NCBI RefSeq assembly: GCF_022045235.1
Contig: NW_027266265.1
Coordinates: 36,456,001 to 36,520,000 of the forward strand
Direction: 5' to 3'
Origin: Haliotis cracherodii
Taxonomy: Eukaryota
DNA: 64,000 nucleotides
Part shown: piece after piece, positions 3,801 to 64,000 of the stretch
How positions within the stretch are numbered: position 1 is the stretch's first letter
How the letters are laid out: each line of letters begins with the position of its first letter
Notes under the pieces: generated by a model
Databases searched by the model: none
The model's input: the letters and a program-made list of their open reading frames with translations, nothing else
Told to the model about the DNA's origin: nothing
Program-made: the position numbers and the translations under genes

Positions 3801-5225
3801 CTGGATGGTGAAGGGGAGACTGGGTGTTGAAAGGGAGGGGGAGACTGGATGTTGAAGGGGAGACTGGGTGGTGAAGGGGACTGGGTGTTGAAGGGAAGGG
3901 GGAGACTGGATGTTGAAGGGGATACAGGGTGGTGAAGGGGAGACTGGATGGTGAAGGCAAGACTGGATGGTGAAGGCAAGACTGGGTGGTGAAGGGGAGG
4001 GGGAGACTGGATGGTAAAGGGGGAGACTGGATGGTGAAGGGGGAGACTGGATGGTGAAGGCAAGCCTTGATGTGAAGGGGAGACTGGATGGTGAAGGCAA
4101 GACTGGATGGTGAAGGCAAGACTGGATGGTGAAGGGGGAGACTGGATGGTGAAGGGGAGACTGGATGGTGAAGGGAAGGCAAGACTGGATGGTGAAGGCA
4201 AGACTGGATGGTGAAGGGGGGGACTGGATGGTGAAGGCAAGACTGGATGGTGAAGGGGAGGGGGGAGACTGGATGGTGAAGGGGAGGGGGAGACTGGATG
4301 ATGGAGGGGAGGGGGAGACTGGATTATGGAGGGGGCACATGCAAGGGAGGCAGGATGGGTGATGAGCATGACTAAAGATTAAATCTTGTATTATGATCAA
4401 TTTGTTATTTCACATCACTCTGATTGCTTCTGTTTGTTGTCCAGGATGATGCTTCAGTCATTGAGATGTTTTCTACGTTCCTGCACCAGCTGAAGTTGTC
4501 CCTGGGGCAAGGTAAGAACATGGATTATAGTAAAATAAATCAGGTGTTCTTTAACTCTTTTTTCTAAGCTATGAAATACTTTGGAATGTTCGTTTCTGTG
4601 CATAAATGGATGTTTTGTCTTCTTTCTAATATGATTGTTCATAAATTGCCGTCCGTTGATTCTGGGTTAGAGTAGGTCCACAAAAACATGTGATGGTCGT
4701 CAAAGTCAACTTGAGGGATCCAGTGGTCAAGCTCAGTGACTTCAACATAAAGCAACAGTGTGGATCGTTGCTCATAACATGTAACACTGGATTGTCTGGT
4801 CCAGACTTCATTATTCACAGGCCGTCATAAAGTTGAAATATTGCTGCATTAAACAACAAACGAAAAAAAAAAAAATGAATGAACATGGTCAGTAAGATGT
4901 GTAGGTTTTATTTCAAGCTTTTGTAGGGGTGGTCTGGTAGCCTAGTGGTTAAAGCATTTGCTCGTCACGCCGAAGAACCGGGTTCGATTCCCGACATGGG
5001 TACAATATGTGAAGCCCATTTCTGGTGTCCCCTGCCGTGATATTGCCGGAATATTGCTAAAAGCGGTGTAAAACCATACTCACTCACTCACTCACTCAAG
5101 CTTTTGTCACCCATGATTATACGAATACTTTATGCTCAACAGGCGCCGCATCAATATTTGACGGGGAAGTGATGCTGCTTGATGAAGAAGAGAGAAGATT
5201 GATTAACCGCTTAGTGTCTGATTGA
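894..5225 (+). CDS. 3' part of an unidentified multi-exon gene; exons 894-1013, 2307-2448, 3216-3409, 4445-4511, 5143-5225 (TGA)
   Basis: All junctions GT-AG with matching phases (0,1,0,1). Joined frame is open: SLDTQLLQKVLNIYLSLCRAINPTRHLQMIFRGLCGRISK/SSSLHESLD...EEEEDIFA/GGDLPAFYAEC...ESDDWDSWSDDDQ/DDASVIEMFSTFLHQLKLSLGQ/GAASIFDGEVMLLDEEERRLINRLVSD*. 5' exons lie outside the window; family not recognised. Confidence 0.8.
969..2110 (+). repeat. ~61-67-bp minisatellite (~17 copies) built from an exon 3' end plus its splice donor
   Basis: Unit CACCTCCAGATGATCTTCAGGG..CTCTGTGGACGCATCAGTAAG|GTAAGCCATCAGCCACACCAGA; the first copy overlaps exon 894-1013. Confidence 0.95.
2697..3047 (+). mobile_element. 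SINE family B (tRNA head + Meta-domain-like body, MetaSINE-like)
   Basis: A/B-box head, GTCATACAAAAAGACGTTAAAAGA..GGCGCTCGGCATTAAGGGG body, (ACCTC)n tail; 15-bp TSD CTCATGGTCAGTATA (2682-2696 / 3048-3062); nested in an older related copy. Confidence 0.85.
3460..4360. repeat. G-rich intronic minisatellite (GACTGG(A/G)TG(G/T)TGAAGGGGA, ~17-23-bp units)
   Basis: Directly visible; produces the Pro/Ser-rich ORFs at 3165..4400. Confidence 0.95.
4926..5095 (+). mobile_element. SINE family A (tRNA-Asp-like head, ~170 bp, (ACTC)n tail)
   Basis: GGTAGCCTAGTGG A box, GGGTTCGATTCCC B box, GTC anticodon-like loop; TSD TCAAGCTTTTGT (4913-4924 / 5096-5107). Confidence 0.9.
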
Positions 5226-6930: not shown

Positions 6931-7574
6931 ACCATACCCCATTTCACCTCACCTCACCTCAGGGTGATTATAAGCTGACCGCCGTGATATGACTGAAATA
7001 CCGTTCAAAGCGGTCAACGCACTCATTCTTTGCATTATATGACTTGACTGTATACTTGTGATATGGAGAAACATACATTTAGGAAAAAAACCAGCTTTTC
7101 AGCTGGTGTCGGTTGTGTTATATATGTGACTGCCTCCGTGATCACCCATGTTACATATATATACAAAAATGAGATCAGTGTCATGTGTAGAAATTTCCAT
7201 AAGGTATATGGAAGCTCGGAATATGTGAAGATATTGATTGGATGGTGGTTGACTTGTTTCCTGGTGTGTATCTGTGGAGACGCATGCCATTCAAATGTGA
7301 AAAAAACATATCAATTTATCTTTTTGTTCCTTTGTTTGTTGTGTTCAGCAAATCTGTAGAACCTCCATGAAAAGTGTTGATTTTAATCATCAAAGGGAAC
7401 AGTATTTCTTATTTTGCAAGTTTAATTTACTAGTTTTTACATGCTCAAAATATTTATTTTGTATTGATTTACAATTTGTCATGGCATTGTGTTTGTATGA
7501 TGTTATTTCTGAGTGATCTTATTGAAGTTATGTTAAAATCTTGTTATGTTAGGGACTGACATTTGGGGTCGCTG

Positions 7575-9391: not shown

Positions 9392-12300
9392 TCACTTGAC
9401 ATCTTGACTGATGTAGGTCACTTGCTCGATTGTGACTTCACTGCTAATGACCAACCGGTCTGTGTGGTAGGACGGGTAGGTGTTGCACTGTTCCCCAATG
9501 TATTCTCCGTCAACAATCACCTGTAATGACAAACACATTGATACTGACAACCATTTTCTGCTGCCAAACTCGGAGGAAAAGTGATTGAGTTGGGTTTAAC
9601 GCCTCTTTTAACAGTATTCCAGTTATATCGCGGCGTGTCAGCTTAATGTGGGAGGAAAGCCCAAAGTGATGCAGGTCTCAGACGTTTACCGCTTCGGTGA
9701 AACCCACGAGCACGGGTATGGTGCTGACAAGCCTAGAAACATAATCGGGGCGAACCGGGATTCGAACCCACAACCATAGGTTTTTTGGCGTGCCCAAGGG
9801 ACGCTCTGTACAGCGAATCGCGGCGCCGTAGACGACTGGGTCACCCGTGCCCCCCGGAGGAAAAGAGTGAGTTGAGGCCGCTTTGAACAGTATTTCAGTT
9901 ATATCGCGGCGTGTCAGCTCGATGGGCCAGGTACATCAAAAGTGCAGGTCTCAGGCGTTTAGCACTTTGAAGAAACCCACTAGCACGGGTATGGTGCTGA
10001 CAAACCTAGAAACATAACCGATGAATCGGGATTCGAAGCCACGATCATAGGTTTTTTGCCGTGCTCAAGGGACGCAACAGTCCACAGCGACGTGCAGTGC
10101 CTTAGACGACTGGGCCACCCGTGCTCCCGACCATGATCGATGCCCCAGAATCAACCGCAGACAAAACCAAGAAACATTATCAAAGCGACTCTGGGATTCG
10201 AACCGACGACCACAGGGAGAACGCCTAAAGGACAAGTTCGAGCACCCAGGGGATATATGTTGTTTTTGGGTTTTTTATTTGTTTTTTAACAAAAAATCAA
10301 TAATTGATTTGTCTACTCCAGATTCGATTATTTACAGATCACCATAATAAAACTGGAATGTTGCTGAGCTAGGCATGTTACAAACAAACACAGTTTTGCA
10401 GTTTGTTGGTCAATAAAGCGATCCGTGAGCGCTATAAGTCAGTATTAAATATGAAAGTTACGATCGTCCTAGCTCTAAGATCGCTTTGTTGAACAGGGCC
10501 CTTATGTTAACACTACTTGAAGTCACTCACTTGAAAGGTGTGTGCTTGTCGTACTACCCCCAGCCGGAACTGCTTCCCCAGCGTAAAGGGTTGTATGTTT
10601 AATAAACCCGATGACAGGTACACGTTCGCGTGGATGGATGAAGTGCTCGCGAAACGGACTTCCAAGTAGAACAGCCGAATGTCGTTGGAGATGAGAGTAA
10701 CCGTGAATCTGAATTAGAAAATATAAATATGAATTATGACAGCTAATTTTGTAATTATTATACTGCTGCCGTTAATAATGCAGGACATGTGACGTTATGC
10801 GTAACACGCACCGTTAATAATGCAGGACATGTGACGTTATGCGTAACACGCACCGTTAATAATGCAGGAAACGTGACGTTATGCGTAACACGCTCCGTTT
10901 ATAATGCAGGGAATGTGACGTTATACGTAACACGCTCCGTTAAAAATGCAGGGAATGTGACGTTATGCGTAGCACGCACCGTTAATAATGCAGAGGATGT
11001 GACGTTATGCGTAACACACTCCGTTAATAATGCAGAGGATGTGACGTTATGCGTTACACGTTCCGTTAATAATGCAGAGGATGTGACGTTATCCGTAACA
11101 CGCTCCGTAAATAATGCAGGGAATATGACGTTATCCTTTAAATGACACAGTGATCAGTATCTTCTCATTAAGCATACACTTAAAATGACACAATGATCAA
11201 TATGTTCACGTTAAACATGCACTTGAAATGACACAATGATCAATATGTCCATGTTAAACATGCACTTGAAATGACACAATGATCAATATATTCACGTTAA
11301 ACATGCACTTGAAATGACACAATGATCAATATGTTCACATTAAACATGCACTTGAAATGACACAATGATCAATATGTTCACGTTAAACATGAAATTGAAA
11401 TGACACAATGGATGACAATCGCCATTATTCAAGCATCACAATTATTTGTGAATGGCTACGCCAGTTTGTCACATACAAGCACACTATTAAATACGTTACA
11501 GGCGTAAATGCAATCACTGGAAACATACCTTGAGCGGACGGTTAGCGTGGCTATAATCTCGAGCGAGTACTGGTCAGTAATACCCCAGGGAAGTGACACA
11601 TCAAACTCCACTCCCTGTAAGTTGAAGGGTTAATTAACGTCATGTGATCAAATAACCAGTCAATACAAAATGACATTAACCCTTGAGACTGGGTCATATA
11701 TGACAGTACGACTGTGAAATATTATTTAGGGCAAGGCCAAGTGTACACTAACAATGTTTCGTCTTGATAAGTAGTCTGTTGTTAACTCAGTTACAAGATG
11801 TATGAGGGGGCACGGGTGGCCCAGTCGTCTATGCGATGTGCAGAGTTGCGTCCCTTGGGCAAGCCAGAAACCTATGATTGTGGGTTCGAATCCCGGTTCG
11901 CCCCGATAATGTTTCTAGGTTTCTCAGCACCATACCTGTGTTCGTGGGTTTCACCAAAGTGGTAAACGTCTGAGACCTGCATCACTTCGGGCTTTTCTCC
12001 CACATTAAGCTGACACGCCGTGATATACCTTGAATGCTGCTCAAAGCGGCGTTAAACTCAACTCACTCACTCACTCAGTCCCTTCAAGATGTATAATCAT
12101 ATGTACAACCTAAAAGTCCATATCACCATCATTGTTATCAAAGTTCATTCATCAAGGCATGTATATATATATCATCACAGTAGCTTTTGGCCCTAAGATT
12201 ACGTCTTAAAGTACTATATATGGCATAAGCCGCCATAATCAAATACATTGCGATATGTAGAGACGGGGCCCAGCTTAAGAAAGTAACAAGAGAGCTGGGG

Positions 12301-15284
12301 ATGGTGACGTCACTTCCGATTCGAAGTGATGGCGAATGGGCCCAGTGCATATATATATATATATACTGCTCAAAACAAGTCAAAGAACACCCACAACTGG
12401 AAAACTGAGGGTTGCATGACGAATTATCTATTTTCATTTGAAAAATAAATCTGGTGTTCTTTAACTTCTTTTGAGAAGTATATATCAACACAGTAGAGCT
12501 ATGATAATGATACACTGGAGAATCGAGGATCAAGTCTACACGATATACGGTTTTTCCATTGGGCGAGGGGTCGGTCACATGACCGCGAAACTGAAGTTCA
12601 TAAGTGTATGAATGTCACAGTTTGACGTTCATATGTTTTTCACGAGACTGCATTCTTGAAATAACATAAACACTGACGGACTACTTCCACATTCCTGGGG
12701 GAACCCATGAGGATTCCCTTGCACGAATTCATACAGAAGCGTTATTTCTTGTCATTTAGACCCTCATTTAGCGCGTTAGCATACATTGGGTTTAGTCATG
12801 CATAGGGTTTGGATATCCTCGCTACAACCCATCCTGGAAAACAAAACGAAAAAACGCACATCCAAACTATCGTAGTTGACTCTAAGCTCCGACGTTCATA
12901 CAGTTTTGGGGGCGGTCGGGTAGCCTATTGGTTAAAGCGTTCCATCGTCACGCCGAAGACCCGGGTTCGAATCCCGACATGGGTACAATGTGTGAAGCCC
13001 ATTTCTGGTGTCCCCCGCCGTGATATTGCTGTAATATTGCTAAAAGCGGCGTAAAACCATACTCACTCACTCACTCACTCATACAGTTCGGCTCTCACTC
13101 TATAAAGGTTCATAAAGTGAACTCACACAAAGTGAGAGTCAATTCTTAAATACATCTGAAACATTTACATACCGGCTTTGGGTGTGGCCACCTCGCCCTA
13201 TAGCACGAGCCATAGAGTCCCTCCCACTCTCCCACGCTGGAACACCGGTGTTTGGTGCTTCTCCCACAGAAGAGGAATCCCGGGCGACAGGTGTACGTTG
13301 CCGTTGCACCGACGTACTTCCCCTTGAACGAAACGTCCGCGTTTGGTAAGGGAGGGGGTAAGCCACATGCGGTTTGGTCTGCGAAATGAAAATACAATAT
13401 GCATTAGTGTATATGTTCCCACAAACAAAAAAAACAAAAAAAAGCCTCGATACTACTAACATGGTAGCGCGAGGTGAATCGAGGTGAGGTGAAATTGGGT
13501 TTAACGTCGCGTCCAAGATTATTGCACTGATATACCGACGTGTGTGTGTGTGGCTGCTTGTACTAGTCCGGACTGATGCCGATTTATAGCGCTAGCTATA
13601 TACCATGCCGCAGTTTAACATGAATACCCCACTCAGACACAGTGTACTGACTCCTAGCCGACCAGTCCTTGTTTGAGCCCCATAATGCCGAGGGTGACAA
13701 CAAGTACCATCTTTTAACGTCTTTTGGTATGACGCGGCCGGGGATCGAACCCAGGACCTTCCGCTCTCCGGGCGGACGCTCTACCACTAGACCACGGAGA
13801 CGAGTCAACCTAAATCTTATACATTTGCAGATACAAAGGTACAAAAAACACACGCGTCAGCTTTCATTACGCGCAATAATTTTAATGAGGACTATTATTG
13901 TTATGGGGGCGGTCGGGTAGTGGTAAAATCTTTGCTCGTCACGCCGAAGACTCGGGTTCGAATCCCGACATGTGTGAAGCCCATTTCTGGTGTCCCCCGC
14001 CGTGATATTGCTGGAATATTGCTAAAAGCGGTGTTAAACCAAACTCACTCACTCACTCACTCACTATTATTGTTATGAAGATGGAGCAGTGGGATAGTCT
14101 AGTGGATAAAGCGTTCGCTCGTCACGCCAAACACCCGTGTCCGATTCTCCACATGGGTACTCTGTGTGAAGCCCATTTCTGGTGTCCCCCGCCGTGACAT
14201 TGCTGGAATATTGCTGAAAGCGGCTTGAAACTATACTCACTCACTGAAGGTTAATGAAGGTTATAAAACAACCCAAATGCAAAATAAGACACACACAGAT
14301 ACTGATTGTGTTCGTATTCGATACACTCAGCATTAATACAGCTATATGAGGGCGGCCTGGAAATTGTCGAGTCTGAACCAGACAAACCAGTGGTCGATAT
14401 CATGAGCAACGCCTATGCTATAGGAGTACGACGACACGCAATCAACAAAGTCACCGAACCGGAACACCCGATCCACATTTCTTCTTAAAATAAGTTGATG
14501 GGAATCAATTCTACCCCGGATTCCCTAGGGGTCTCAGAAGACAGAGGAGCGGTCGGTGGCCTAGTGGTTAAAGCGGTCGCTCGTCACACCGAAGACCGGG
14601 TTCGATTCCCGACATGGGTACAATGTGTGAAGCCCATTTCTGGCGTCCCCCGCCGTGATATTGCTGGAATATTGCTGATAGCGGCGTAAAATCAAACTCA
14701 CTCACTCACTCAAATGACAGAAAAAACAAATTACCTGGGTCGCATCCTCCGAAGAGAGGCGTAATGGCTTTTGATCCGGGGATCCTGCACAGGCTATCGT
14801 CGTCAGCATCTGTTGTGTCCAGGCTGAAGGTCAGTGAGTCCAGCTCTACCCCATACTGGTCACCGTCCTCCACCTTGACCGTCAACTGATGATTTCCCGC
14901 TTCGGCAGTTACATTTTCACCGAAATTTGCGACTTCCAGTATAGTGTTCCATAATACACCATCACCAAGTTTTTCTCGCGTTACCCAGCTTCCGACCTCC
15001 TGGTCATCGAGATGGAAGGTCAGGAGATCAGACAGGCCGTCATTGGAGTACCGCAATTTTTCTAGCGAAAACGATTTCCTTTTCTTCAAACAGAAATTAT
15101 ATATCAATTTCTCGTCGTCGTAGAGGACAACCGTGCCTTGGTTTGATGCGTGTCCACGGGGACGTAGACGACACTTCTCAACACCAACAGCAGTCGCGAG
15201 TTCATCAAGCTGAACCGTGACTTCATGAGCTAGCGACGCCCGCAGCAGGGGTAGCAACAGCACGAACGTGCACCACGTGTTCAT
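9392..15284 (-). CDS. Gene A: secreted multi-domain lectin-like protein, 382 aa (signal peptide + CBM6/35-like domain + sushi/CCP + galectin-like domain); exons 15284-14735, 13378-13173, 11614-11529, 10708-10531, 9520-9392
   Basis: All junctions GT-AG, phases 1,0,2,0, total 1149 nt. Signal peptide MNTWCTFVLLLPLLRASLA. CCP motif CGLPPPLPNA..GATATYTCRPGF..RCSSVGEWEG..C. C-terminal LPWGI..RFTVTL..YLEVRF..PFTLGKQFRLGV..FQVIVDGE..DRLVISSEV follows the galectin strand pattern. TATTTAAA lies ~40 bp upstream and AATAAA at 9336-9331. Confidence 0.85.
9582..10128 (-). mobile_element. Two tandem SINE family C copies (9582-9854, 9866-10128)
   Basis: Consensus matches; first copy bounded by TSD CGGAGGAAAAG. 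Confidence 0.85.
10768..11140. repeat. 42-bp minisatellite (~9 copies) in an intron of gene A
   Basis: Unit CCGTTAATAATGCAGGACATGTGACGTTATGCGTAACACGCA. Confidence 0.95.
11140..11410. repeat. 43-bp minisatellite (~6 copies) abutting the 42-bp array
   Basis: Unit AAATGACACAATGATCAATATGTTCACGTTAAACATGCACTTG. Confidence 0.9.
11805..12080 (+). mobile_element. SINE family C
   Basis: Consensus match; TSD CAAGATGTAT. Confidence 0.85.
12364..12480. mobile_element. Tc1/mariner-type MITE (117 bp)
   Basis: 28-bp TIRs TACTGCTCAAAACAAGTCAAAGAACACC / GGTGTTCTTTAACTTCTTTTGAGAAGTA (3 mismatches), TA on both sides. Confidence 0.75.
12908..13078 (+). mobile_element. SINE family A
   Basis: TSD TCATACAGTT. 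Confidence 0.9.
13480..13806 (-). mobile_element. SINE family B
   Basis: Reverse-complement match to 2697-3047. Confidence 0.85.
13906..14711 (+). mobile_element. Cluster of three family A SINEs (13906-14062, ~14085-14245, 14546-14711) around an old - strand family D-like copy
   Basis: First copy has 15-bp TSD ACTATTATTGTTATG; others match the consensus. Confidence 0.8.
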
Positions 15285-15649
15285 CTTTGAGTCCAGACGT
15301 TCAGTGAGACAAGAGTCTACTCATTTAAATATGCTTGGGAGATCCGGTATTTGAATATTTAACTGCTTCGTCCATATAAGGACATGCGACTGCCGCATTA
15401 TAGGTCCCATAATCAGCATTATTTACAAGTGTGACAATTTTATCACATGTGTGGATATAGATTAAAACTAAACTTTCTTAATGTTTCGACATATGATAAT
15501 TTTACGATAATGTTATTATCATTCTACGATAATTTTACGATAAGTTTATGATACTTTATGATTATTCTTGGATAACACTTTCTTAGTAAAGTACAGATTC
15601 TAGTACTTAATTGTGGGTTGAGTCCCATCCGGAATTCGAACCCGCAATG

Positions 15650-16769: not shown

Positions 16770-17025
16770 GATTGACCACACGATCCCGTTAGTCGCCTCT
16801 TACGACAAACATAGTCGCCCTTTACAGCAAGAATGGGTTGCTGAAGACCTATTCTACCCCGGATCATCAAGGGTCCCAAGCAATTGGAATACGATGACAT
16901 GGCATCAACAAGTCAGCGAGCCTGACCACACGATCCAATTAGTCGCCTCTTACGACAAGCATAGTCGCCTTTTACAGTAAGCATGGGTTGCTGAAGACCT
17001 ATTCTACCCCGGATCGTCACGGGTC
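16770..17025 (-). mobile_element. Family D, two tandem 5' halves
   Basis: Head ...CTATTCTACCCCGGATC..CACGGGTC appears twice. Confidence 0.8.
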
Positions 17026-17139
17026 AAATGTTGTTTTTTTGTTTTTAATCATGACGGGCATGGCTATGTAGCTAATTCTTTACAGCTCCCAAATGTCCTT
17101 GCTCTGTCTCATTTGACTGTTGTGATGGTGAGTGTTCAT

Positions 17140-17515
17140 AATAATTAAACAGCCAATCCCCTTCCACTGATTTACCCACCTGACCAGAACTGAAGGAGAC
17201 CAGTGAGACCACCTCGTCTGTTTCATATTTACATCTATGCATAGAGATTTAGAGTAACACTTTCCACAAAGACATATGACAAGAAGGATGACTTCAACTT
17301 CCCAATAGCAAATGTTCCCTTCGTGTCGAGCAATATTTTTGCAGCTCCAGCCTTTGGCGTTTACATTCCACAACTTCTGAGGAACAATCGAGCATGCGTT
17401 TTCTTCGGCGATTTCAAAGACTCTTATTAAAAGTTGTTTGATAAAGGGTACAACATTCAAGGCCTCAGTAAAACCTTCAAAAAGTCTTATGGTAGACATG
17501 AAGAAGGTATTTCCA
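17140..17515 (+). mobile_element. Penelope-like element RT/thumb fragment
   Basis: Decayed YDK..DDFNFPIANVPFVSSNIFAAPAFGVYI..LFDKGYNIQGLSKTFKKSYGRH. Confidence 0.75.
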
Positions 17516-25480: not shown

Positions 25481-25747
25481 TATGCATAGCCAAAGAGACA
25501 TTACCACGTTTGAAATCGTTATTCCTATATATGTAAAAGGAACCGACCAGTTGATAATCTGAAAATGAATCGCCTCCCAATTGCCTTCTTGAAAAAAATA
25601 ATTGTGGTTCTGACAGTTGAAAAAAGAGAAATTGATAGTCACATAAAATACATCGTTGCAAATGTTGTTTTTTGTGAAAAAATATTTAGGCTCATAGTAT
25701 TAATTAAAAAAAATAGCTGGATTTGCATATGTAGCTTAAAACAGCTA

Positions 25748-25968
25748 GTCCAGCTATATGACGGCGGTCTGTAAATAATTCGGACCATACAATCAAGTGA
25801 TCGATGTCACGAGCAACGATCTACGCAATTGGGATCGATGACATGTATCAACCAAGCCAGCAGCCTGACCTACCGATCCCGTTAGTCTCCTTTGACGACA
25901 AGCATAGTCGCCTTTTACGGCAAGCAGGGGTTGCTGAAGACCCATTCTACCCCGAATCTTCGCGGGTC
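25748..25968 (-). mobile_element. Family D
   Basis: Reverse-complement consensus match starting at the GACCCG head. Confidence 0.8.
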
Positions 25969-26289: not shown

Positions 26290-27152
26290 TCAGTATAAAT
26301 TCATCTTGACAACAATCGATGCCGTAGTTAGGCCGACAATACACATCTGTGTTAGTGGGGAAGTAGCAGGCGGAGATGCCGATGTCGGTCTCGGCGGGGA
26401 CAGGGTAGACGAAGGAGTCGATGTCGAGGCAGAAGTTGCTGCCGAGGAAGAAGCTGCTGTCGAAGAAGAAACAGATACCGATGTCGGTTTTGGCGATGAC
26501 AGAGTTGACGAAGAAGTAGATATCGAGGCAGAAGCTGCTGTCGAGGAAGAAGTTGCTGTCGAGGACGAAGAAGATGTCGAGGAAGAAGTAGGTGTCGAGG
26601 AAGTAGAAGATGTCGAGAACGGTGTTGATTGACAAACAGCTGTTTCATCGGAATTATCAGAACACTCGTTGTAGGTATTGCAGACCAAATCCTTTGGGAT
26701 GCACAGCTTGTTGTCACACTGGAAGTCAAGCTGCGAACACGACCCTGGAAGACATAAGCAACACTTCTCTGTCATACAAGAATGAGAGCCTTAAAATATA
26801 AAGCACCTCATGGGGGATGAAACAGGGGCCAAAGGTTTACAAGCGAGTGTATGTCATTGCACGCCGCAACCAGCTATACCAAGGGGATCCGTAAATAATC
26901 GAGTTTGGACCAGACAAACCAGTGATTGATGACGCCGTCGGGATACGTCGCGATCAACAAATCACCGAGCCGGACTTCCCAGAGTCACCTCTTGCGAAAC
27001 TCAACACAGTGGTCGGGACCTGGACCCGCACGTGCCCAAAACAAACGTTACGACGACCGCAAGTCCAATGCTTTAACCCAGAGGTGAAGGTGAGGTGAAA
27101 TTGGGTTGAACGTCGCGTCCAAGATTATTGCACTTATATAGCGACGTGCATG

Positions 27153-30770: not shown

Positions 30771-31810
30771 GAGGATTGGCAAAATCTAAACAAGGTAATT
30801 TGGTCAAGAAGTAACTTAAGCTTTAGTTATATTGATGATCTGATATCGTTCAATAACAATCAAATAGCTAATTTCCCTCCACTGATTTACCCACCTAAAC
30901 TAGAAATAAAGTGACCAATCGGACCTCCTCATCTGTTTCATATTTAGATCTGGCCGACTCCGTGGTCTAGAGGTGGAGCGTCCGCCCGGAGAGCGGAAGG
31001 TCCGGGGTTCGATCCCCGACCGCGTCACACCAAAAGACGTTAAAAGACGGTACTTGTTGTTACCCTGTCTGGCGCTCGGCATTAATGGGCTAAAACAAGG
31101 ACTGGTCGGCTCGGAGTCAGTATACTGTGTCTGAGTGGGGTATTCATGTTAAACTGCGGCATGGTATCTCAGTGAGCTAGCACTATAAATGGGCATCAGT
31201 CCGGACTAGTACAAGCAAACACACACACACGTACATGCACGTCGCTATATAAGTGTAATAATCTTGGACGCGACGTTAAACCAAATTTCACCTCACCACA
31301 CCTATGCATAATGATTCAGAGTGACAAATCACTCTCCACAAGACTGTATGATGAGAGGGATGACTCCTATCCTATAGTCAACCTTCCCTTCACGTCGTGC
31401 AATATTCCAGCAGCTCCAGCCTTTGGTGTTTACATTTCACAACTTTTGAAATACAATCGAGCGGGCTCTTTCTACCAAGGAGCACGGGCATCAGAAGTTG
31501 TTTGATCAGGGTTAAAACACTCAAGGCCTCAGTAAAGCTTTCAAAAAGCGTTATGGTAGACATGTGGAGGACTTTTCCAAATTTGACGCATCAGTGACAA
31601 AAATGATGTCCGATGCAATTCCCTATTTTGACTTGTACCATACATGTCTGTTCCCGTGTTGTTTCATGTGAACAACTGACTAGCCTTTGCATGTGTTTGT
31701 GGCAGGTGCCACCGGCTGTTCAGGATACGCTCACCTTTTCGCGAACACCTGGTATCATTACTATTTTTTAGTGTTTCTTGAACACGTGCTCATGATATAC
31801 TCAGAATCGT
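30770..31810 (+). mobile_element. Penelope-like element 3' fragment (RT catalytic region to 3' end), interrupted by a family B SINE (30951-31303)
   Basis: YIDD at 30828-30839; STRLYDERDD..PIVNLPF..NIPAAPAFGVYISQL; conserved 3' motif at ~31688-31765. Confidence 0.8.
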
Positions 31811-32784: not shown

Positions 32785-33315
32785 TTTGTTTGTTTGTTTT
32801 TTTCTTTGTTGTTTCCCGCCGCACTCAGCAATATTCCAGCTATATGACGGCGGTCTGTAAATAATCGAGTTTGGACCAGACAATCCAGTGATTGACATCA
32901 TGAGCATCGGTCTACGCAACTGGGATACGATGACAAGCACCAACCAAGTCAGCGAGCCTGACTACCTGGTCACGTTAGTCGCCTCTTACGACAAGCATAG
33001 TCGCCTTTTACGACAAGGAAGATACATATGTCGACGGAAGATACTCCAAGCCTTATGTATTTCAAAAACTAGTGATAGCGATAAGGGCTTCATTCAGATT
33101 GTCCCGGAATAAAACGAGTGGTCCCTAATGGTATTTATAAATGTATCACGTTAACTACAGTGACCATCTACATATAAAAATGTATAATACAAACATGCAT
33201 CAACCAAGTCAGCGAGTCTGACCACCCGATCCCGTTAGTCGCCTCTTACGACAAGCATAGTTGTCTTTTACGGCAAGCATGGGTTGCTGCAGACCTTCCC
33301 CGGATCTTCACGGGT
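32785..33315 (-). mobile_element. Family D copies (32785-33015 and 33193-33315)
   Basis: Reverse-complement consensus matches. Confidence 0.8.
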
Positions 33316-33488
33316 CCTCTAATACAAAGTAGACCAGTTAATTATTTTAATTAGAATATAGCATCGAAAGGCATACTGTCATATATTAGCGGCCACAGAT
33401 GCATGCTGGTAATCATCAATCTGACAAAATCTTGCATTCATCCTGTTGCAGAATCCTCTGGAACATAAGCTTTATTTAAAACGGTTAC

Positions 33489-36400
33489 TCAATTAACGCT
33501 GTCATATCCCCGATGGTGCCTAAGTCTCCTAGTCAGACACAATGCTGCCACTGCGACCGCCAACAAACAAGCGAATGTCACACCAACTATAAGTCCCGCG
33601 TTTTCTCCCAGAGGGGTGTAGTCGGGGCCGTTGCAGTCATTCTCATCTGAGTTATCAGAACACTCGTTGTATCCATTGCACAATAAGTCTTTGGGTATGC
33701 ACAGATTGTTGGCGCACTGGTACTCAATCGAAGCACATTTCCCTGAAACAAAAACAACCAAGACACTTTATGAAATGTGCCAATAGATAAACAGGTTTTT
33801 GACTTTGATAATATTACTGGTTTACTTACTGTTTAAATTGTTTACAATTCGGTCCCCGAAATAAGCATCTGTCAATGCACAGTATGGCCTATTCTTGGTG
33901 AAGAATAATTGTAGAGGAAGAATGTTTCTTTCTCAGAATATGCACACTATGGCCTATTCTGTCTTGGTGAAGAATAATTGTAGAGGAAGAATGTTTCTTT
34001 CTCAGAATATGCACACTATGGCCTATTCTGTTTTGGTGAAGAATAATTGTAGAGGAAGAATGTTTCTTTCTCATAATATGCACACTATGGCCTATTCTGT
34101 CTTTGTGATGAATAATTGTAGAGGAAGAATGTTTCTTTCTCATAATATGCACAGTATGGCCTATTCAGTCTTGGTCAAGAATAATTGTAGAGGAAGAATG
34201 CTTAATTCTCATAATATGCACAGTACGGCCTATTCAGTCTTGGTGAAGAATTATTGTAGAGGAAGAATGTTTCTTTCTCATAAATGCACAGTATGGCCTA
34301 TTCAGTCTTGGTGAAGAATAATTGTAGAGGAAGAATGTCTCTTTCTCATAAAATGCACAGTATGGCCTATTCAGTCTTGGTGAAGAATAATTGTAGAGGA
34401 AGAATGCTTCTTTCTCAGAATATGCACACTATGGCCTATTCAGTCTTGGTGAAGAATAATTGTAGAGGAAGAATGTTTCTTTCTCAGAACATGCACACTA
34501 TGGCCTATTCTGTCTTGGTGAAGAATAATTGTAGAGGAAGAATGTTTCTCATAATATGCACAGTATGGCCTATTCTGTCTTGGTGAAGAATAATTGTAGA
34601 GGAAGAATGTTTCTTTCTCAGAACATGCACAGTATGGCCTATTCTGTCTTGATGAAGAATAATTGTAGAGGAAGAATGTTTCATCCTCATAATATGCACA
34701 GTATGGCCTATTCTTGAAGAAGAATAATTGTAAAGGAAGAATGTTTCTTTCTCAGAATTAATGACGATAAAGCAACATAATGTGAATTTGTAGTGCCGGA
34801 TGTTTTGTCTGAAGGGACCGGAAGTGTAAAAATATATACATTTGGAACATTTACTTAATATATTGTTGCTGTGTTATGATGCTGTTTCGTTCTTGTTGAC
34901 ATGTGCCTGGTATTAATTATTATTTGGTGCACAGAAGGGAACGTTATGTGTGGTCTCCATAGTGATATGTGGTCTCTGGCAGTATCTAGTACTTTCATCA
35001 AAATAGACATCTTACATGGATAAAAACATCATTAGTAAATGGAATATCTCTTGCGAAACGCAATACAGTGCTGGAGACCTGTGTCCACCTGCTCAAAGCA
35101 AACGCTACGACGATCGTAACTCCAATACTTTAACATTGACTTAAGATAGTCGTAACGTTAAGATCGTTGTGTGCGAGTGGGTCCCGCCTTAGCCTGGTGA
35201 TTTGTTGAATGAAAGAATGAAATGCGCTAAAGGTGGATGAGTGAGTGAGTTGGGTTTAAGGCCGCTTTTAACACTATTCCAGTTATATCGTAGCGTGTCA
35301 GCTTAATGTAGGATGAAAGCCCGAAGTGATGCAGGTCTCAGACGTTTGCAACTTCGGTCTATCGTGGATGAAGGATTTATACTTTTTACAATACAAATAA
35401 ACAATATTTTAATTAAAGTGCAACAGAGACACATTCTTACCTGAGTCACATCGGTTAGCAGATCGTAACACAAGTAATGAAAATATGACAACTTTGATAC
35501 AAACCTTCAATCCCCATGTTGAACGCAGTGATGAGGATCGACAATGATTTCCCCTTAGTTTTCGGAGAGTCACTTTTGTAATCAAATTGAGCATAGTTGC
35601 CCGGTGCTTTGAAGACTTGGGCGTTATCCTCCTTACATAGAGGACCTGTATCATGAAGCAACATGTCATTATTATTCATCAAATGTTTTACAAAGAACAA
35701 ATTTCGTTTGAGTTATTAATGTGAACAATTTGAAGAGCACCAGACTAGCAAGGGGCGCGACTGAGGGACGTTTCTGCACCAAACACTCTGACCATGTATA
35801 ATCACAATCATCACTCATTTTTGACAAGTACAGAAATTAGAAATTCTGGCCAATTGACCTGCCTTTGCATGTGTTTCTGACGGGTGGCACCGGTGGGACA
35901 TGATACGTCGACCTTTTCGCGAACACCTGGTGCCGTCACTATTTGATAGTGATTCAAAAACACATGATCGTGTTAAAGTCAGAATCGTACAATCGATTGC
36001 ATTTGGCAGAATCTGAATAATATGTAAAGAGGTTTGTCGATTTCATTTGAAATTAAAACTCTCCATACCTGCAATGCTGTTTCCATTTTCATCTAGGATG
36101 TCCAGACTGGTGTTGCTGCAGCTGTCCACGAGGTCTAACACGGTGATGTCGATGAGGAGCCTTTCGTTTTCCAAGCTGCTCTGAATGACGAGGTTACATT
36201 GCTCCACTGAACGCAGGTTTGAGGCAAACAGTATCACGCTCTCGGAAAAGGGCATGGTACTGTCACAGTTCTCTTCCAGCACAACTGAAAACACGTGAAG
36301 AGAATATCTATTGGTGTTCGTCAAATACGCTCTATATTTCATCGTATGGTTCATCACATACTGCAGAGTGTTTGTGCAATATACTTATCCGATAAACTTA

Positions 36401-52307: not shown

Positions 52308-55300
52308 TCAGTCAATAGGTAAATATGACCCACGTCTGTTCCTTGCTCGGTGTATTTTGACGGCGAAGACACAAACAACAGCTAACAGAAACACCCCACA
52401 ACATACAGACACAATAACAACTTTCTTCACCAGCTGGTTGCCTTCAGTCGCATTACAGCCTATCGTCTCGTCCGAATTATCGGAGCAGTCATCGAAGCTG
52501 TTGCAGGTCATGTCGCTGTCTATGCAGAGTGAGTTACTGCACGTGAAGTCATAAGACGTACACGCCCCTGCAACAAAGATATCCTCTTAGGCGACTCTGG
52601 TGTTAAGGGTTTTGGTTTGGGATTGGTTTGTTGCTTAACGCCGCACTCAGCCATATTCCAGCTGTATGACGGCGGCTGTAAATAATCGAGTCTGGACCAG
52701 ACAATCCAGTGATTGGTATCATGAGCATCGATCCACGCAATTTGGATCGATTACGTGCATCAACCAAGTCAGGGAGCCTGACCACCCGATCCCGTTAGTC
52801 GCCTCTTACGACAAGCATAGTCGTCTTTTACAGCAAGAATGGGTTGCTGAAGACCTATTCTACCCCGGATCTTCAAGGGTCCCACGCAATTGGGATCGAT
52901 GACATGCATCAACCAAGTCAGCGAGCCTGACCACACGATCCCGTTAGTCGCCTCTTACAACAAGAACAGCCGTCTTTTACAGCAAGGGTGAGTTGCTGAA
53001 GGCCTATTCTACCCCGGATCTTCACGGGTGTAAGTGCACGAGCGTTCTGTAGCACTTACCATTGATCTGTTCGTGAAAGGACGTGATAAGTAAAGTGAAG
53101 ACATCCTGAGAAGCCTCATGCTCGCCACGGTTGGAATGGTACCAAACTCCCACTGACTGACCGCTGGAGTTGAAGACAGGAGTTGTTATGTTGGTACCAC
53201 ATAGACGTTCTTGAAGAAAGAATAAAAAAAAAGAAGAAATAATTATCACAAATGTCATAAAAACTACAATTATATATTAATTATGGTGGATAACGTGAAA
53301 TGTCTACATATATGTAGCGCTCCAGTGAGCTAGGATGAGGGTCAAAAGAAAATATACCCAGTTTGTTTTTTATGTAATTGAAAATTGAAGAATTGTTGTT
53401 AAATTTTATTATATTTGTTTAATCATCACTCATTCCTGCAAAAGTTTACAAAAAGTAATCTGTGGCTGGGTAATTTTGTGTAAACAAATTAGCTTAGTGA
53501 AAATCGGAGTAAGGTATGAATTTGCAACCACATGACCCCAACCATCTTGAAATGTAAATTTGTGTCAAAAAAAGGTAATTTGTTGATTATAAAAGATAAG
53601 ATGTCTAAGATACCCATCGACAGCTGTGTATCAAGTCATTTTTAAAAAGTTAAACGAATTATTTTTCAAATTATATAAAAAAGAAATAAAACCACGTAGA
53701 ATATTCTTTGAGTGCTGACTAAGCGCCAGTACAGTGTTTTTTTGTGTGGATATTTTCAATTGAAAAGCAAACATATAATAAAGTCAACTGAAGCCATAGT
53801 TTCTCTCGCCCCTCAGTTTGTTTGGGTTTAACGCAGCTTTAAACATGGTTTCAAACACGGTGCACAAGAGATGCAGTTTTTAGGCATTTTCGACTTTCGT
53901 GAAACCCACTGGTCTCGGATTTGATGTCTGATTTCAGGCACATGAAATGATTCCTGAACGACATGGTGAACAACATGGATTACACGTGCATACTATGTCA
54001 GAGGGGTACTCAAAGAACGTGATCTAGACTACCAGTTGTCGGACTTTCATTTTTTGTGGACGCCTCGGTGGCTGAGTGGGTTAGATCGCTGACTTTGTGT
54101 GCTGGCGATTAGGTGCCTCACTCTGGCAAGTGTGGGTTCGAATCCCGGACGGGACTCAACCCCCCCCCCCCCGCAATAAAAGAAAAAAAAAGAAAAAAAA
54201 AAGGTACGGGCATCTGTACTTTATTAAGAAAGTGTTATCCCACATATAACATTTGTTACATACTATAATTGATGAAAATATATGATTTACACAATACATA
54301 AATTGTTTGTTTGTCTTTAATTCCCTACTCGTGTATAGTAGTTCTGCTATATAACGTGTGCTGAACCACACATTCTACAACGTCGGGGTGCGATGACACG
54401 CAATCAACAAAGTAACATTGACTGAGAGGATTTTTATGAATTGTCTGAGTTTCCCATCTCCCGCCCGCCCTGAATATCCATTCCGGCGTAAAACATTACA
54501 AAGTTTTCATATCTCAATTTTCCCCGCCGCTGTGGAAACCGATGCTCCGATATGAAAGTTACTACTGCAACTGCACAATCATACAAAAACTAGGTCAGCT
54601 TGAAATTGCTTCAGCTATATCTATTAAATAGTGGCTTCCAAAGAACAGCGACTCGATCTTCGTCGTAAATTAATTTGAATAAAAGCGAAAAAATCATTTC
54701 GCTATATTTGCATATTACGAAATCTCGATTGTACGATTCTGACTATATCAAGAGCATGTGTTTATGATTCACTATCAAATAGTAATGATACAAGGTGTTC
54801 GCGAAAAGGTGAGCCCCACCTGTGGCACCCGTCACAAACACATGCAAAAGCAAGTCAGGTAAGAAGTCCTCCTTTTCGTACACTCACTCACATGGCGGCA
54901 TGAGGTTTTCACATCTGATTCAATTCAATAGAGTGAATCATTGTAGAATCACAACCAATATACCGGAACTTTCTACCTGTACATAGTAGATATATAAGTT
55001 CATCTATAATCATCGTTAACAAGTGACACATGATCCAAGTTAACATAGGGAATTATATCAGACATCATTTTTGTCACTGGTGAGTCACATTTGGAAATGG
55101 GACCCGTGAAGATCCGGCGTACAGTAGGTCTTCAGCAACCCATGCTTGGCGTAAAAGGCGACTATGCTTGTTGTAAGAGGCGACTAACGGGATCGGATGG
55201 TCAGGCTCGCTGACTTGGTTGATGCATGTCATCGATCCCAATTGCGTGCATCAATGCTCATGATGTCAATCACTGAACTGTCTGATCCAGACTCGATTAT

Positions 55301-57056
55301 TTACAGACCGCCATCATATAACTGGAATATGGCTGAGTGCGGCGTTAAACAACAAACAAACAAACAAAAACATTTGGAAATGTCCTCCACTTTTTGGAAG
55401 CTTTACTGTAAACTTGAAGTCTTGGTAGAAAGAGTATGCTCGAGTTATGAAATGTAGACACCAAGGACTCAAGTTGCAAGAATATTGCTCCAAAGTTGAA
55501 GTCATCTCTCTTGTCATATAGTCTTGTGGGGAATATTTGGTTACTAACTGGTACTTTAAAATGTCCTAAAACAAGTCACACGATTAGTAAAAAATGTCTT
55601 TATAAAATTTATTGTTTTTTCTTACTTCTCCCACCCGCTCTCTTGCTGGTGAGGATGGAGATGACAAACACATAAAAAACACGGATGCCTTACCGAATAC
55701 AATAGCTATCTCATAAAATATCTTGTGGAATCCCCACGGAGCCGAACGAAAAGAAACACGTGTGTAATAGGTATGATTCTGTGGCCATCCCAGTCTCACC
55801 TGAAGCATGTTTGCCCTCAATCTGAGACACATGGACGCCGGCTTTCGAGCAATCTGGATAGCCGGGGATGTCAATACTCAGGAGGCGAACTAACAACCGA
55901 TTGCCGTCAACGTCACTTTCAACCAACGTCTTACAACTCTCTTGTTTCTTCCTGGTCTTGTTGACGGATAGTTTGAGAAGCATATCTTCCGAAATAATGA
56001 TCGTATTGCCACATTCTTCAGAAAGCTCAACTGAAAGGATAAAGGATACAGACACTCACCATTGAAACGTCTCCTTCTAAGTCAGCGATGTAAGAAAATA
56101 AGAACGGTATAATATTGTCTTCGAGTGAGTGAGTGAGTTTGGTTTAACGTCGCTTTGAACAGTATTCTAGTTATGTCGAGGCGTGTCAGCTTAATGTGGG
56201 AGGAAAGCCCGAAGTGATGCCGGTCTCAGACGATTACCACTTATTGAAACCCACGAGCACGGGTATGGTGCTGACAAACCTAGAAACAGTATAAAGCCGA
56301 ACCGGTGTACGCGCCCACAAGCATAGGTTCCTGGTGTGCTCAAGGGACGCAAATCCACCTGTGCCCCCGTTTATCTTCGAAGGCATACAGGATAATCAAA
56401 AAAGACAAAGGATGTTGCGCAAAGGATAAAGCAAACATGGCAAAGGATAAAACATAAGTGATAAAGCATAACATATCAACACAAAAGATGAAACATACAT
56501 ATATAGAATGTAGGATAAAGTGTGAAGCATAAACGCCCTGATAAGGAATATAACAGTCACAATTACCCTTACAGATAAATAAAAAAATATTAGCCGATAT
56601 ATGCAGCGTCGTAAATGTGATACTTTAGGAGTCAAATTTGTTATCCAATCGTTGCTTTTCCTGTCTAGGGAGGCAGTGGGGTAGCCTCGTGGATAAAGCG
56701 TTCACTTGCACGCCGGAGACCCGGGTTCGATTCCCCTCTTTGGTACAATGTGTGAAGCCGATTTCTGGTGTCCCCCGCCATGATATGGCTGGAACATGGC
56801 TAAAAGTGGCGGAAAACCATACTCACTAAAACCGATATAATGTCATAACGTACTTACATGACATATTATTTACTCCACTGGGCTAACGAATTGTATTATC
56901 AAGTATACCAATCCTTCGGTTTTAGTGTAAACATAAATACACCACTAAATTAAGGCAAAACAAGTACTTACATGTCTTTGGTGTGTTCTTTTGAGCCTGA
57001 CTGACCCCACGTGTGCCTATCATTACCAGCAAAATAATATTAACATAAAGCTCCAT
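52308..57056 (-). CDS. Gene F: CUB-like + LDLa + TM type I membrane protein, 241 aa; exons 57056-56972, 56030-55800, 53209-53060, 52567-52308
   Basis: GT-AG, all phase 1. Signal peptide MELYVNIILLVMIGTRGVSQA. ECGNTI..SCKTLV..NRLLVRLLSIDIP..DCSK..RLCGTN..FTLLITSF. LDLa CTSYDFTCSNSLCIDSDMTCNSFDDCSDNSDETIGC. TM VVIVSVCCGVFLLAVVCVFAV. Tail RARNRRGSYLPID*. Confidence 0.88.
52615..53029 (-). mobile_element. Family D, 1.5 tandem copies filling intron 3 of gene F
   Basis: Two heads, at ~52880 and ~53029. Confidence 0.85.
54058..54160 (+). pseudogene. Isolated tRNA-derived head (SINE of a fifth family, or tRNA pseudogene)
   Basis: GGTGGCTGAGTGG A box and GGGTTCGAATCCC B box with a long spacer; no clean cloverleaf; followed by a C-run and an A-rich tract. 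Confidence 0.5.
54780..55530 (-). mobile_element. Penelope-like 3' fragment interrupted by a full-length family D copy (55101-55369, +)
   Basis: Minus strand TRLYDKRDDFNF..GVYIS; 3' motif at 54790-54850; D copy has TSD ACATTTGGAAATG. Region 54790-55018 is also homologous to 46940-47163. Confidence 0.75.
56124..56369 (-). mobile_element. SINE family C
   Basis: Reverse-complement consensus match. Confidence 0.8.
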
Positions 57057-58467: not shown

Positions 58468-59445
58468 TGAGTGACTAAGTAGTGTGAGTGTATGAGTGAG
58501 TGTTTGAATGAGTGAGTGTTTGAGTGAGTGTTGAGTGAGTGGTGATTGAGTGAGTGTTGAGTAAGTGTTTGTATGAGTGAACGTGTGAGTGAGTGTTGAG
58601 TGAGTGTTTGAGTGAGTGTTTGAATGAGTGACTGTTTGAGTGAGCGTTGATTGAGTGTTGATTGAGTGAGTGTTTGAGTGAGTGTTGAGTGAGTGTTTGA
58701 ATGAGTTAGTGTTTGAGTGAGTGTTTGAGTGAGTGTTTTGAGTGAGTGTTTGAGTGAGTGGTATTTGAGTGAGTATTTGAGTGAGTGCTATTTGATTGAG
58801 TGTTTCATTGAGTGTTTGAATGAGTTAGTGTTTGAGTGAGTGTTTGAGTGAGTGAGTGATTGAGTGAGTGTTTGAGTGAGTGTTTGAATGAGTGAGTGTT
58901 TGAGTGAGTGTTGAGTGAGTGGTGATTGAGTGAGTGGTATTTGAGTGAGTGTTTGAGTGAGTGTTTGAATGAGTGAGTGTTTGAGTGAGTGTTAAGTGAG
59001 TGGTGAATGAGTGAGTGTTTGAGTGAGTGGTATTTCAGTGAGTGTTTGAGTGAGTGTCAAGTGAGTGGTGAATGAGTGAGTGTTTGAGTGAGTGGTATTT
59101 GAGTGAGTGTTTGAATGAGTGAGAGTTCGAATGAGTGAGTGTTGAGTGAGTGATGATTGAGTGAGTGTTTGAGTGAGTGGTATTTCAGTGAGTGTTTGAG
59201 TGAGTGTTGAGTAAGTGAGTGGTGATTGAGTGAATGTTTGTGTGTGTGTGTATAAGTGAGTATTTGAGTTAGTGGTGTTTGAGTGAGTGTTTCAGTGAGT
59301 TTTTGAGTGAGTGAGTGTTGAGGGAGTGGTGATTGAGTGAACGCTTGAGTGAGTGTTATTTGAGTGAGTGTTTTAGTGAGTGTTATTTGAGTGAGTGTTT
59401 GAATGGTATTTGAGTGATTGTTTAGGTGGTGTTTGAATGAGTGAG
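58468..59445. repeat. ~1-kb compound (GAGT)n/(TGAGTGAGTGTT)n satellite
   Basis: Directly visible; its right end joins a decayed - strand family A SINE (~59440-59530). Confidence 0.95.
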
Positions 59446-62717: not shown

Positions 62718-63375
62718 GTAAGTGCAGAAAAACATCTTCTCCATTATAGTGTAGATTTGATGGTAAGTGCAGAAAATACATCTTCTACATTATAGTGTAG
62801 ACTTTATGGTAGGTGGTGAAATATATCTTATCCATTTTAGTGTAGATTTGATGGTAAGTGCAGCAATATATGTTCTCCATTATAGTATTATAGATTTGAT
62901 GGTAAGTACACATATATATCTTCTCCATTATAGTGTAGACTTTATGGTAAGTGCACACATATATCTTCTCCATTATAGTGTAGACTTTATGGTAAGTGCA
63001 CACATATATCTTCTCCATTATAGTGTAGACTTTATGGTAAGTGCACACATATATCTTCTCCAATATAGTGTAGACTTTATGGTAAAGGCACACGTATTTC
63101 TTCTCCATTATAGTGTAGACTTTATGGTAAGTGGTGAAATATATGTTGTCCATTATAGTGTAGACTTTATGGTAAGTGCACATATATCTTCTCCATTACA
63201 GAGTATACTTTATGGTAAGTGCACACATATATCTTCTCCATTATAGTGTAGATTTGATGGTCATTGGTGAAATATATCTTTTCCAATTAGTGTAGATTTG
63301 ATGGTAAGTGTTGAAATATATCTTCTCCATTATAGTGTAGACTTTATGGTCAGTGGTGAAATATATCTTCTCCAC
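62718..63375 (+). repeat. 45-bp minisatellite (~14 copies) starting exactly at the exon-2 splice donor of gene G
   Basis: Unit GTAAGTGCACACATATATCTTCTCCATTATAGTGTAGACTTTATG. Confidence 0.95.
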
Positions 63376-64000
63376 TTTTTATATTTTATTTAAAAAAAGG
63401 AAATTCCCGTTGCATATTACAATGTCAAAACATCTATAACTAAAAACAGATATGTTGTTATGCATACAAACTACACAAAACTAAACAGTTATCAACTAAA
63501 CAATGAATGACAATTTGACAAAACTGTGTTAAAGAACTTCGTGTTAGCATATTATAAAGATGCAGCGTATTTTGTCGAGTTATAACTTTGGGTAAATTAA
63601 GGCGGTGTGTTAAAACGTTTATATCTAAATTTTTTTATAAACAATGTACTTTGACAAAATGATTCGTTCATTTATTTTACCAAATATCAAATGGTTGGCC
63701 CCTAGCTCGCGAAACCATGTCCGCCACTGCACCACTAATCATGTATTTAATTCATAGATTGACTTGGATTGAGCATACATGTATATATCACTATTTTTTT
63801 AAAGAACTGTAAATAACATTGAACATAAAGAACGTGGCAGATATAGTACTGGAGCTCATAGCAACGTTTTGGTATTCTCAAAAGTTAAAGAAACGAATTA
63901 AAATTATGTAAATAGAGCGTTAGCAGTATTATGGCCACAGACACTGATGACGTCAAACCTCCGGACATCTAAGCGCCAAATTTCGAAAATGACAGACGAC

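Follow-up and report, generated by a model that had tools for sequence, protein, structure and literature searches.

The 64,000-nt window analysed here (the whole stretch, Haliotis cracherodii, contig NW_027266265.1, positions 36,456,001 to 36,520,000) carries family D, a ~270-bp retroposon flanked by target site duplications (TSDs), with a sharp 5' start and a (CAAA)n 3' end. Its full copy at 55101-55369 on the forward strand is the focal copy of this study. The ~90-nt head of family D is a conserved, covarying RNA fold predicted to contain two pseudoknots. We propose that family D is a non-autonomous retroposon mobilized by a long interspersed element (LINE), of the short interspersed element (SINE) type known as LP-SINE, and that its head would block the exoribonucleases Xrn1/Xrn2 and trim read-through transcripts to a fixed 5' end. 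From our analysis, we assign this reading a probability of about 0.5. A wider proposition, which we rate slightly short of even odds, is that a new exoribonuclease-resistant fold has been exchanged among animal LINEs and SINEs, unrelated RNA virus lineages, and a large DNA virus. It would give retrotransposons a precise 5' end via host RNA decay, as a third way beside internal promoters and self-cleaving ribozymes.

The fold has a common layout. Its 5' part consists of a 3-5-bp stem (P1), a conserved U, a 7-nt loop strand, a variable spacer, the sequence AGAAUA, and a 7-nt partner strand that pairs with the loop strand to form the first pseudoknot (PK1). In the 3' part, the loop of a short stem (P3) pairs just past the core to form the second pseudoknot (PK2), with a hairpin (P4) and UAA lying in between. 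In the focal copy, where all features are on the forward strand, two unpaired nucleotides (GA, 55101-55102) precede P1 (55103-55118, with 55103-55106 paired to 55115-55118). P1 encloses the conserved U (55107) and the PK1 5' strand (55108-55114), and the loop-3 linker (55119-55126) leads to the PK1 3' strand (55127-55133, 7 bp with 55108-55114). P3 (55134-55146, with 55134-55137 paired to 55143-55146) is predicted by eye, following the layout of the parsed families, and carries the PK2 5' strand CCC (55139-55141) in its loop. Typical of family D is a duplicated 22-nt unit with a weakened hairpin (55144-55165). The second 22-nt unit (55166-55187) holds P4 (55170-55184, 7-nt loop, one stem base changed in this copy) and TAA, and beyond it lies the PK2 3' strand (55189-55191), which pairs over only 3 bp in D and over up to 8 bp elsewhere. 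The rest of the element comprises a body of unassigned origin (55192-55307), a 3' tail like that of the tRNA-headed SINEs of the window (55308-55350), which would point to a common partner LINE, and the (CAAA)n terminal repeat (55351-55369).

An earlier interpretation made from the letters alone, the sequence-only reading, had described a CCCG/CGGG stem, a TAGAATA linker, and an 8-bp H-type pseudoknot. Stem and linker are indeed the majority form in the assembled contigs of four public runs (~1 Gb; 139,866 contigs for the largest run), from which all genome-wide evidence comes, but the focal copy is damaged in both (CGGC-GT-ACAGTA). Its outer P1 pair is broken and ACAGTA stands in place of the AGAATA of most copies; the contigs' majority letters at 55118, 55122, and 55124 restore the intact form. 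The pseudoknot covaries across families, although it is better described as 7 bp plus one unpaired U, since conservation between families does not extend to the eighth pair. The repeated hairpin unit, said to be present 1-4 times, was found 1, 2, or 4 times per element, with its length corrected to 22 nt. The downstream CCC..GGG forms part of the predicted second pseudoknot, which had been missed.

Support for the fold comes from covariation and not from single-sequence folding. For one sequence alone, the 8-bp helix is modestly beyond chance (128 of 5000 shuffles), and nested folding is uninformative, with z values of -0.4 to -0.9 for three D heads and -3.1 to +0.8 over seven sequences. For covariation, 17 families were picked from 28 clusters for a clear head, leaving out chance matches and damaged copies, and were aligned with plain MAFFT, not fitted to structure. 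Paired cells make up 90.9% of this alignment, compared with 73.7% in shuffles and 30-49% with slid partners, and 46 cells are changed on both sides, compared with 16 in shuffles. Double-sided changes occur in six of seven PK1 pairs and two of four P1 pairs; the number of pairs with a double change (eight) is not above shuffles in the 17-family alignment (60/500). When partners were permuted among families (29 representatives, including chance matches), PK1 scored 412 versus 318 ± 14 (0/20,000) and PK2 338 versus 286 ± 14 (7/20,000). PK2 is more weakly supported than PK1. It measures 5-8 bp in several families, including the swapped pairs CCTGG/CCAGG and CCAGG/CCTGG. Within the window, a diverged subfamily copy (14324-14533, reverse strand) has the PK1 strands GGGAATC/GATTCCC, that is, three double-sided changes relative to D with 7/7 pairs kept. 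The covariation in PK1 bears out the original idea that the head is a structured RNA.

The hairpin P4 with its UAA is near-invariant from SINEs to viruses, an invariance that results from the pattern selection, and its loop can drift slightly, as seen in two copies in virus L367. The loop has 7 nt with U at position 1, A at position 2, a purine at position 4, A at position 5, and a G-C closing pair. P4 may resemble a conserved segment of small-subunit rRNA, a likeness to be expected by chance. Rfam E-value scans of the D element, six viral loci, and seven other loci gave no match on the motif.

In the window, a blastn search with 55101-55369 returned 39 matches, of which ~20 are long family-D segments, and a covariance model gave 27 matches at E ≤ 1 (E < 0.01 for 22), in agreement with the roughly 20 copies counted originally. 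Fourteen family-D heads could be placed, 12 with an intact linker. The two TSD-bounded full copies reported before were both confirmed: the TSD of the focal copy is 13 bp and exact (55087-55099 and 55370-55382, with one additional G after the left repeat at 55100), and that of the forward-strand copy at 39729-39999 is 12 bp with one mismatch. TSDs also flank the full copy at 43809-44085 (forward strand), the copy at 32786-33316 (reverse strand), which contains ~180 nt of foreign insert, and the 5'-truncated copies at 40838 and 60843. In total, six of ten tested window copies, two of these six being 5'-truncated, have a TSD of 11-14 bp; a convincing TSD was not found in the other four. TSDs of this length together with 5' truncations are as target-primed reverse transcription predicts.

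Neither an A box nor a B box (the latter even allowing one mismatch) was found in four of four D copies, as the sequence-only reading had stated, whereas two tRNA-headed control SINEs gave a B box in the same test. ARAGORN and Rfam gave no match on family D, and the six tRNA-like Rfam matches in the window at the gathering threshold all lie outside it. Sequence before 55101/55102 showed no common consensus among the loose ends of 865 and 413 contigs (agreement 0.35). Hence, a longer tRNA- or 5S-headed form, which would have undermined the earlier view of a headless element, is not evident. The AATATA hexamer expected before the repeats of Hdi_LP/Hmi_LP precedes the 3' repeats in two D copies, and AATATT or AATATG does so in most. 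A D-like tail is also present in two or more further abundant repeat families, one of which has a B box and ends in (TCAC)n, and this suggests one partner LINE. In seven contigs, a D tail is joined straight to a D head (55350 to 55100), so head-to-tail arrays exist. Two D heads, at 43581 (reverse strand) and ~61443 (forward strand), have ~49 nt of upstream sequence in common (92% identical) and both carry G at the otherwise invariant loop U; they may represent a 5'-extended variant or a copy amplified within another repeat.

The element start lies 2 nt before P1 in family D and in the L048-type and L033-type SINE families. At the L048-type boundary, A is found at -2 in 24/36 and C at -1 in 31/36, while -3 is random. 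The boundary letters vary by family (GA, AC, GC), viruses do not keep them, and no base is conserved there. Among 52 heads examined, the TSD directly adjoins the boundary with no additional base in 13 of 14 TSD-resolved copies. The start is unmoved even where loop 3 has gained as many as 140 nt. In other SINE families, the part of the loop before AGAATA expands to 17-140 nt. Insertions of 58-67 nt (L024, L039, L066, L069, L090, L096, L126) and of 131-140 nt (L057, L061, L062, L111, L032) leave both PK1 strands and the start in place. One form of the element is a head-dimer with an internal, still pairable motif, the internal P1 of which carries a G-to-T change. It is inserted at two unrelated sites, 52611-53030 (reverse strand, two motifs ~149 nt apart) and 16773-17025 (reverse strand, same internal junction, different flank). 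Two tandem motif copies also head an animal repeat at L046:1342-1521, which parallels the D dimer and the viral tandems described below.

The element class of family D, which the sequence-only reading had missed, is already known: it is that of the mollusc LP-SINEs (Matetovici et al. 2016, PMC4758252), comprising Hdi_LP/Hmi_LP, Lsa_2, Oco/Oed_LP, and Sgl_LP. According to the parts of that paper used here, the ~70-bp LP-SINE head is common to the LINEs Nimb-17_LMi, I-3_DR, and RTE-9_CPB and was proposed to be a LINE-derived promoter, with Pr77 as precedent, and the abalone families are 255 bp long. LP-SINEs and family D alike have no tRNA head and have TSDs, terminal tandem repeats, and a length of ~255 bp. 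D mostly has the duplicated 22-nt unit, unlike the LP-SINE description. By eye, the scallop "Nimb-17 homology" head (Fig. S2; pectinoid MESC SINEs) matches D in the 16-nt core and the GAAT linker, and its loop is complementary to its 3' strand (GCAGGTA/TACCTGC), as in D (GAAGATC/GGTCTTC), although the letters differ. Exact identity of D with Hdi_LP is inferred, and its length would fit. The same parts of PMC4758252 give neither a structure for the head nor a viral occurrence, and the core strings are absent from the supplement of Kojima 2018. The conserved fold of the LP-SINE head is not in Rfam. In the literature searched, with most subscription papers and Repbase reports outside its coverage, we found no account of the fold or of viruses carrying it, no relevant paper that contains the core string, and no natural exoribonuclease-resistant RNA (xrRNA) in a retrotransposon.

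To find other carriers, we scanned with patterns that used only the core and the linker, neither pseudoknot being part of them. The exact-pattern scans gave 7 and 8 viral loci, 14 loci in prokaryotic assemblies, and 122 of an estimated ~7400 metagenome stretches. An autonomous LINE with this 5' end, as envisaged in the sequence-only reading, is among the carriers. L350 is an intact LINE with an open reading frame (ORF1) containing a weak zinc knuckle and an ORF2 with APE endonuclease, reverse transcriptase, and RNase H, and it has the same fold ~400 nt upstream of ORF1. In L088, the motif lies ahead of an ORF1-like frame related to the ORF1 of L350. The partner LINE of family D itself was not found: the window contains no reverse transcriptase ORF, and L350 and D have only the head in common. 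L350 (G001:C4:518500-528500) is an animal-type LINE within a scaffold of a bacterial symbiont assembly. SINE-like DNA occurs in six further prokaryotic assemblies (L139, L142, L143, L144, L147, L150); L142 and L150 lie at contig ends adjoining bacterial ORFs, and L144 appears RTE-like by eye, with no Pfam match. These seven loci are probably host or animal DNA contamination. The seven clear matches of the 14 in prokaryotic assemblies appear to be animal DNA, which fits a eukaryote-specific partner. The other seven, as well as L002, L004, and L012, were treated as chance.

The motif is also present on the sense strand past the last ORF, that is, in the 3' untranslated region (UTR), in six independent RNA viruses; none of the six has it in the 5' UTR. 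These viruses are L008 (S-domain capsid, tandem motif), L009/L014 (Peptidase_A21 capsid), L011 (toti-like RdRP_4), L013 (RdRP_3, nodavirus-type capsid), L015 (RdRP_3), and L367 (L234/L367; RdRP_3, S-domain capsid, tandem motif). In the five viruses measured, 11-416 nt separate the motif from the last stop before it, and its distance to the end of the contig is 89-184 nt. The occurrence of one motif in two separate records, L009 and L014, speaks against assembly chimeras, as does the fact that none of the viral copies runs on into a SINE body. A DNA virus, L010 (212 kb, 28% GC), which we take to be iridovirus-like, has one high-scoring copy (6983-7057) between two same-strand ORFs, with a NAD-dependent ligase nearby and PK1 letters close to those of family D. 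When the viral scans were relaxed by freeing either the loop or the stem of P4, they gave 120 and 82 loci. Of these, 198 were parsed, and all seven scoring ≥ 19 were already known contigs; the covariance model, run on 100 of the relaxed-scan loci (L255-L348 left out), yielded one new virus, L234/L367. A core-only scan gave 16 loci, eight of them known. The other eight scored ≤ 30 bits or not at all, and the upstream pseudoknot was not found in the six of these that were inspected. Phage genomes gave weak partial matches only.

Conservation of the paired RNA in viruses without a DNA stage indicates a function at the RNA level. A site at the 5' end of retroelements and in viral 3' UTRs would suit one function in both, namely blocking 5'-to-3' decay. 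Under our proposal, D copies would be transcribed by read-through from host promoters, and 5'-to-3' decay of the host transcript would stall at the P1 base, so that the remaining RNA would begin 2 nt ahead of this stem. Copying of the RNA by a partner LINE is shown by the TSDs, 5' truncations, CAAA tail, and tRNA-SINE-like tail. The partner probably belongs to the I/Nimb group, and I/Nimb-type TSDs are reported to peak near 12 bp (PMC4245944). In viruses, the fold would leave a protected 3'-UTR RNA. Known xrRNAs are described as requiring a pseudoknot, stopping Xrn1 at the base of P1, and residing in 3' UTRs or upstream of ORFs (PMC6299227), and often as tandem (PMC13211532). Features of this class are present here, with a covarying pseudoknot beside the presumed protected 5' end and a sense-strand 3'-UTR or intergenic position in six RNA viruses and one DNA virus. 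Like the described dianthovirus xrRNA-D (PMC6299227) and flavivirus xrRNAs, the D fold has its pseudoknot on the 5' side, a predicted RNA end at the P1 base, 3'-UTR or intergenic sites, a stem-loop right past the pseudoknot, and tandem copies. It differs from them in its simple H-type PK1, the AGAAUA loop 3, a PK2 with an inserted hairpin, and its occurrence in retrotransposons. The coremin motif, as reported in PMC10520033, likewise has a short conserved hairpin followed by a UAA-containing spacer and is spread over unrelated RNA viruses, but its loop is YGAD/YGNNAD and it has no upstream H-type pseudoknot.

Several points weigh against a decay block. No Rfam xrRNA family matches the fold in the element, the six viral loci, or the seven other loci, and the coremin pattern is absent from the sense strand of the six viral loci tested. 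We know of no plain H-type pseudoknot that encircles the 5' end with an xrRNA-style ring. The block would also have to tolerate as many as 140 nt inserted in loop 3, and the 17-nt hairpin, being near-invariant, points to a specific ligand or a catalytic core, which goes beyond the needs of a steric block. PK2 is down to 3 bp in D, and in L009, L013, L139, and L143 it is doubtful or missing. One of the four TSD-resolved full copies in the window has an additional G, and the SINE families begin with a purine, as transcription starts often do.

A self-cleaving motif, one of the possibilities raised in the sequence-only reading, would explain the boundary as well. A new ribozyme class cutting 2 nt before P1 could free the element from host transcripts, and the fixed boundary without additional bases, the double pseudoknot with invariant unpaired nucleotides, and a linker that is expandable like J1/2 of hepatitis delta virus (HDV)-like ribozymes all agree with it. 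Pistol ribozymes have a P2 strand between linker and pseudoknot, a P3, and a G-U cleavage junction, while HDV-like ribozymes have P2-P3-L3 nested between 7-bp P1 strands and a paired G at +1. D resembles pistol in its short P1, its loop in a pseudoknot, and the A-rich linker that follows. However, the PK1 3' strand comes directly after the linker in the parsed families, and there is no P2 strand, no P2/P3 cleavage junction, and no Rfam match. An HDV-like fold was rejected as well, since only ~12 nt lie between the 7-bp strands in D, the first two bases are unpaired and variable, and Rfam gave no match. An identity with pistol or HDV, the likenesses drawn originally, is not supported. The HDV-like and twister ribozymes of R2, RTE, and L1Tc (Pr77) with SIDE/NARTc are comparable as structured RNAs at the extreme LINE 5' end that were passed to non-autonomous elements and swapped between clades, but the strand order and spacing of the D fold do not fit them, no Rfam ribozyme matches, and the D fold is found in viral 3' UTRs. 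LINE ribozymes are a reported precedent (PMC6765202; PMC5786205), and linear RNA viruses have been described with UTR ribozymes that are single or in tandem pairs and lie mostly before ORFs (PMC13725137). In six of six RNA viruses here, a cut would sever the coding RNA from its 3' end. There is also no conserved nucleotide at the putative cut, and the head-dimer with its pairable internal motif was propagated to two sites, albeit with the G-to-T change in the internal P1. On balance, our analysis makes cleavage unlikely.

The remaining explanations place the function elsewhere. As a cap-independent translation enhancer (CITE), or a binder of ribosomes or initiation factors, the fold would act as a 3' CITE in viruses and, in retroelements, would serve ORF1 translation or place SINE RNA near LINE proteins. 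Its site soon past the stop in viruses that are probably uncapped, tombus-like ones among them, its position upstream of ORF1, and a near-invariant hairpin like that of BTE-type enhancers speak for this, and 3' CITEs are described as sometimes pseudoknotted. Yet the exact start 2 nt before P1 in several non-coding SINE families that lack another promoter is left unexplained, and we judge this explanation distinctly unlikely on its own. Enhancement could instead be a second job of the 3' half, the part that is duplicated and weakened in D. The published alternative, an internal RNA polymerase II promoter derived from a LINE with the RNA fold being secondary, is in keeping with the purine at the first position, with the extreme 5' position in place of tRNA heads, and with the trypanosome Pr77, reported to be both promoter and ribozyme (PMC4758252). 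A DNA-level promoter, also raised in the sequence-only reading, cannot explain conservation in RNA viruses: base-pair covariation and sense-strand conservation without a DNA stage indicate selection at the RNA level. In addition, the distance of the conserved blocks from the start varies by as much as 140 nt. A weak point, as these reverse transcriptases may or may not copy a cap, is that untemplated G is not in excess at junctions. Hence, we regard a promoter as improbable. Recruitment of a host endonuclease that cuts at the boundary, for example by a tRNA-like surface, seems very improbable. The P4 loop is partly T-loop-like by the pattern given in bioRxiv 10.1101/2022.12.26.521914, but its position 2 is A, where the known T-loops described there mostly have G or U. 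Furthermore, no tRNA or tRNA-like match was obtained, and a cut in a viral 3' UTR would cost the same as for a ribozyme.

Two more family-D copies in the window are on the reverse strand, an intact head without the 3' end (25746-25968) and a full copy at 43125-43393. The upstream flank of the latter (43396-43537) is an inverted duplicate (94%) of that of the 39729 copy (39583-39726), and this flank resembles a repeat also found at ~17134-17228 and ~30773-30949. The other abundant repeats with the D-like tail lie at 4912-5098, 6395, 8486, 12895, 14069, 14530, 47715, 49468, 49809, and 56655, and, as a further family, at 6649, 11795, 21726, 32176, and 48102. Two similar cysteine-rich LDL-receptor-A-like exons (26290-26790 and 42669-43160, reverse strand; by eye) and a possible secreted-protein exon (14706-15320) place the repeats in or near host genes. 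Minisatellite arrays with periods of 19-69 nt occupy 1-760, 896-2182, 3424-4365, 10685-11188, 33802-34819, 48472-49245, 58477-59445, and 62748-63422.

To account for the defined 5' end of LINEs without promoter or ribozyme and of "headless" SINEs, the 2016 LP-SINE paper proposed a putative promoter. The sharing of the fold between retrotransposons and viruses would surprise specialists and matters to both the RNA and the mobile-element fields, and a small 5'-protecting RNA would serve retrotransposon-based gene insertion. If the fold cleaves instead, it would represent a new ribozyme class. If it blocks Xrn1, it would be the first xrRNA tied to a retrotransposon in the literature searched. It would then also add a new architecture to the xrRNAs and exemplify the movement of a non-coding module between transposons and RNA viruses.

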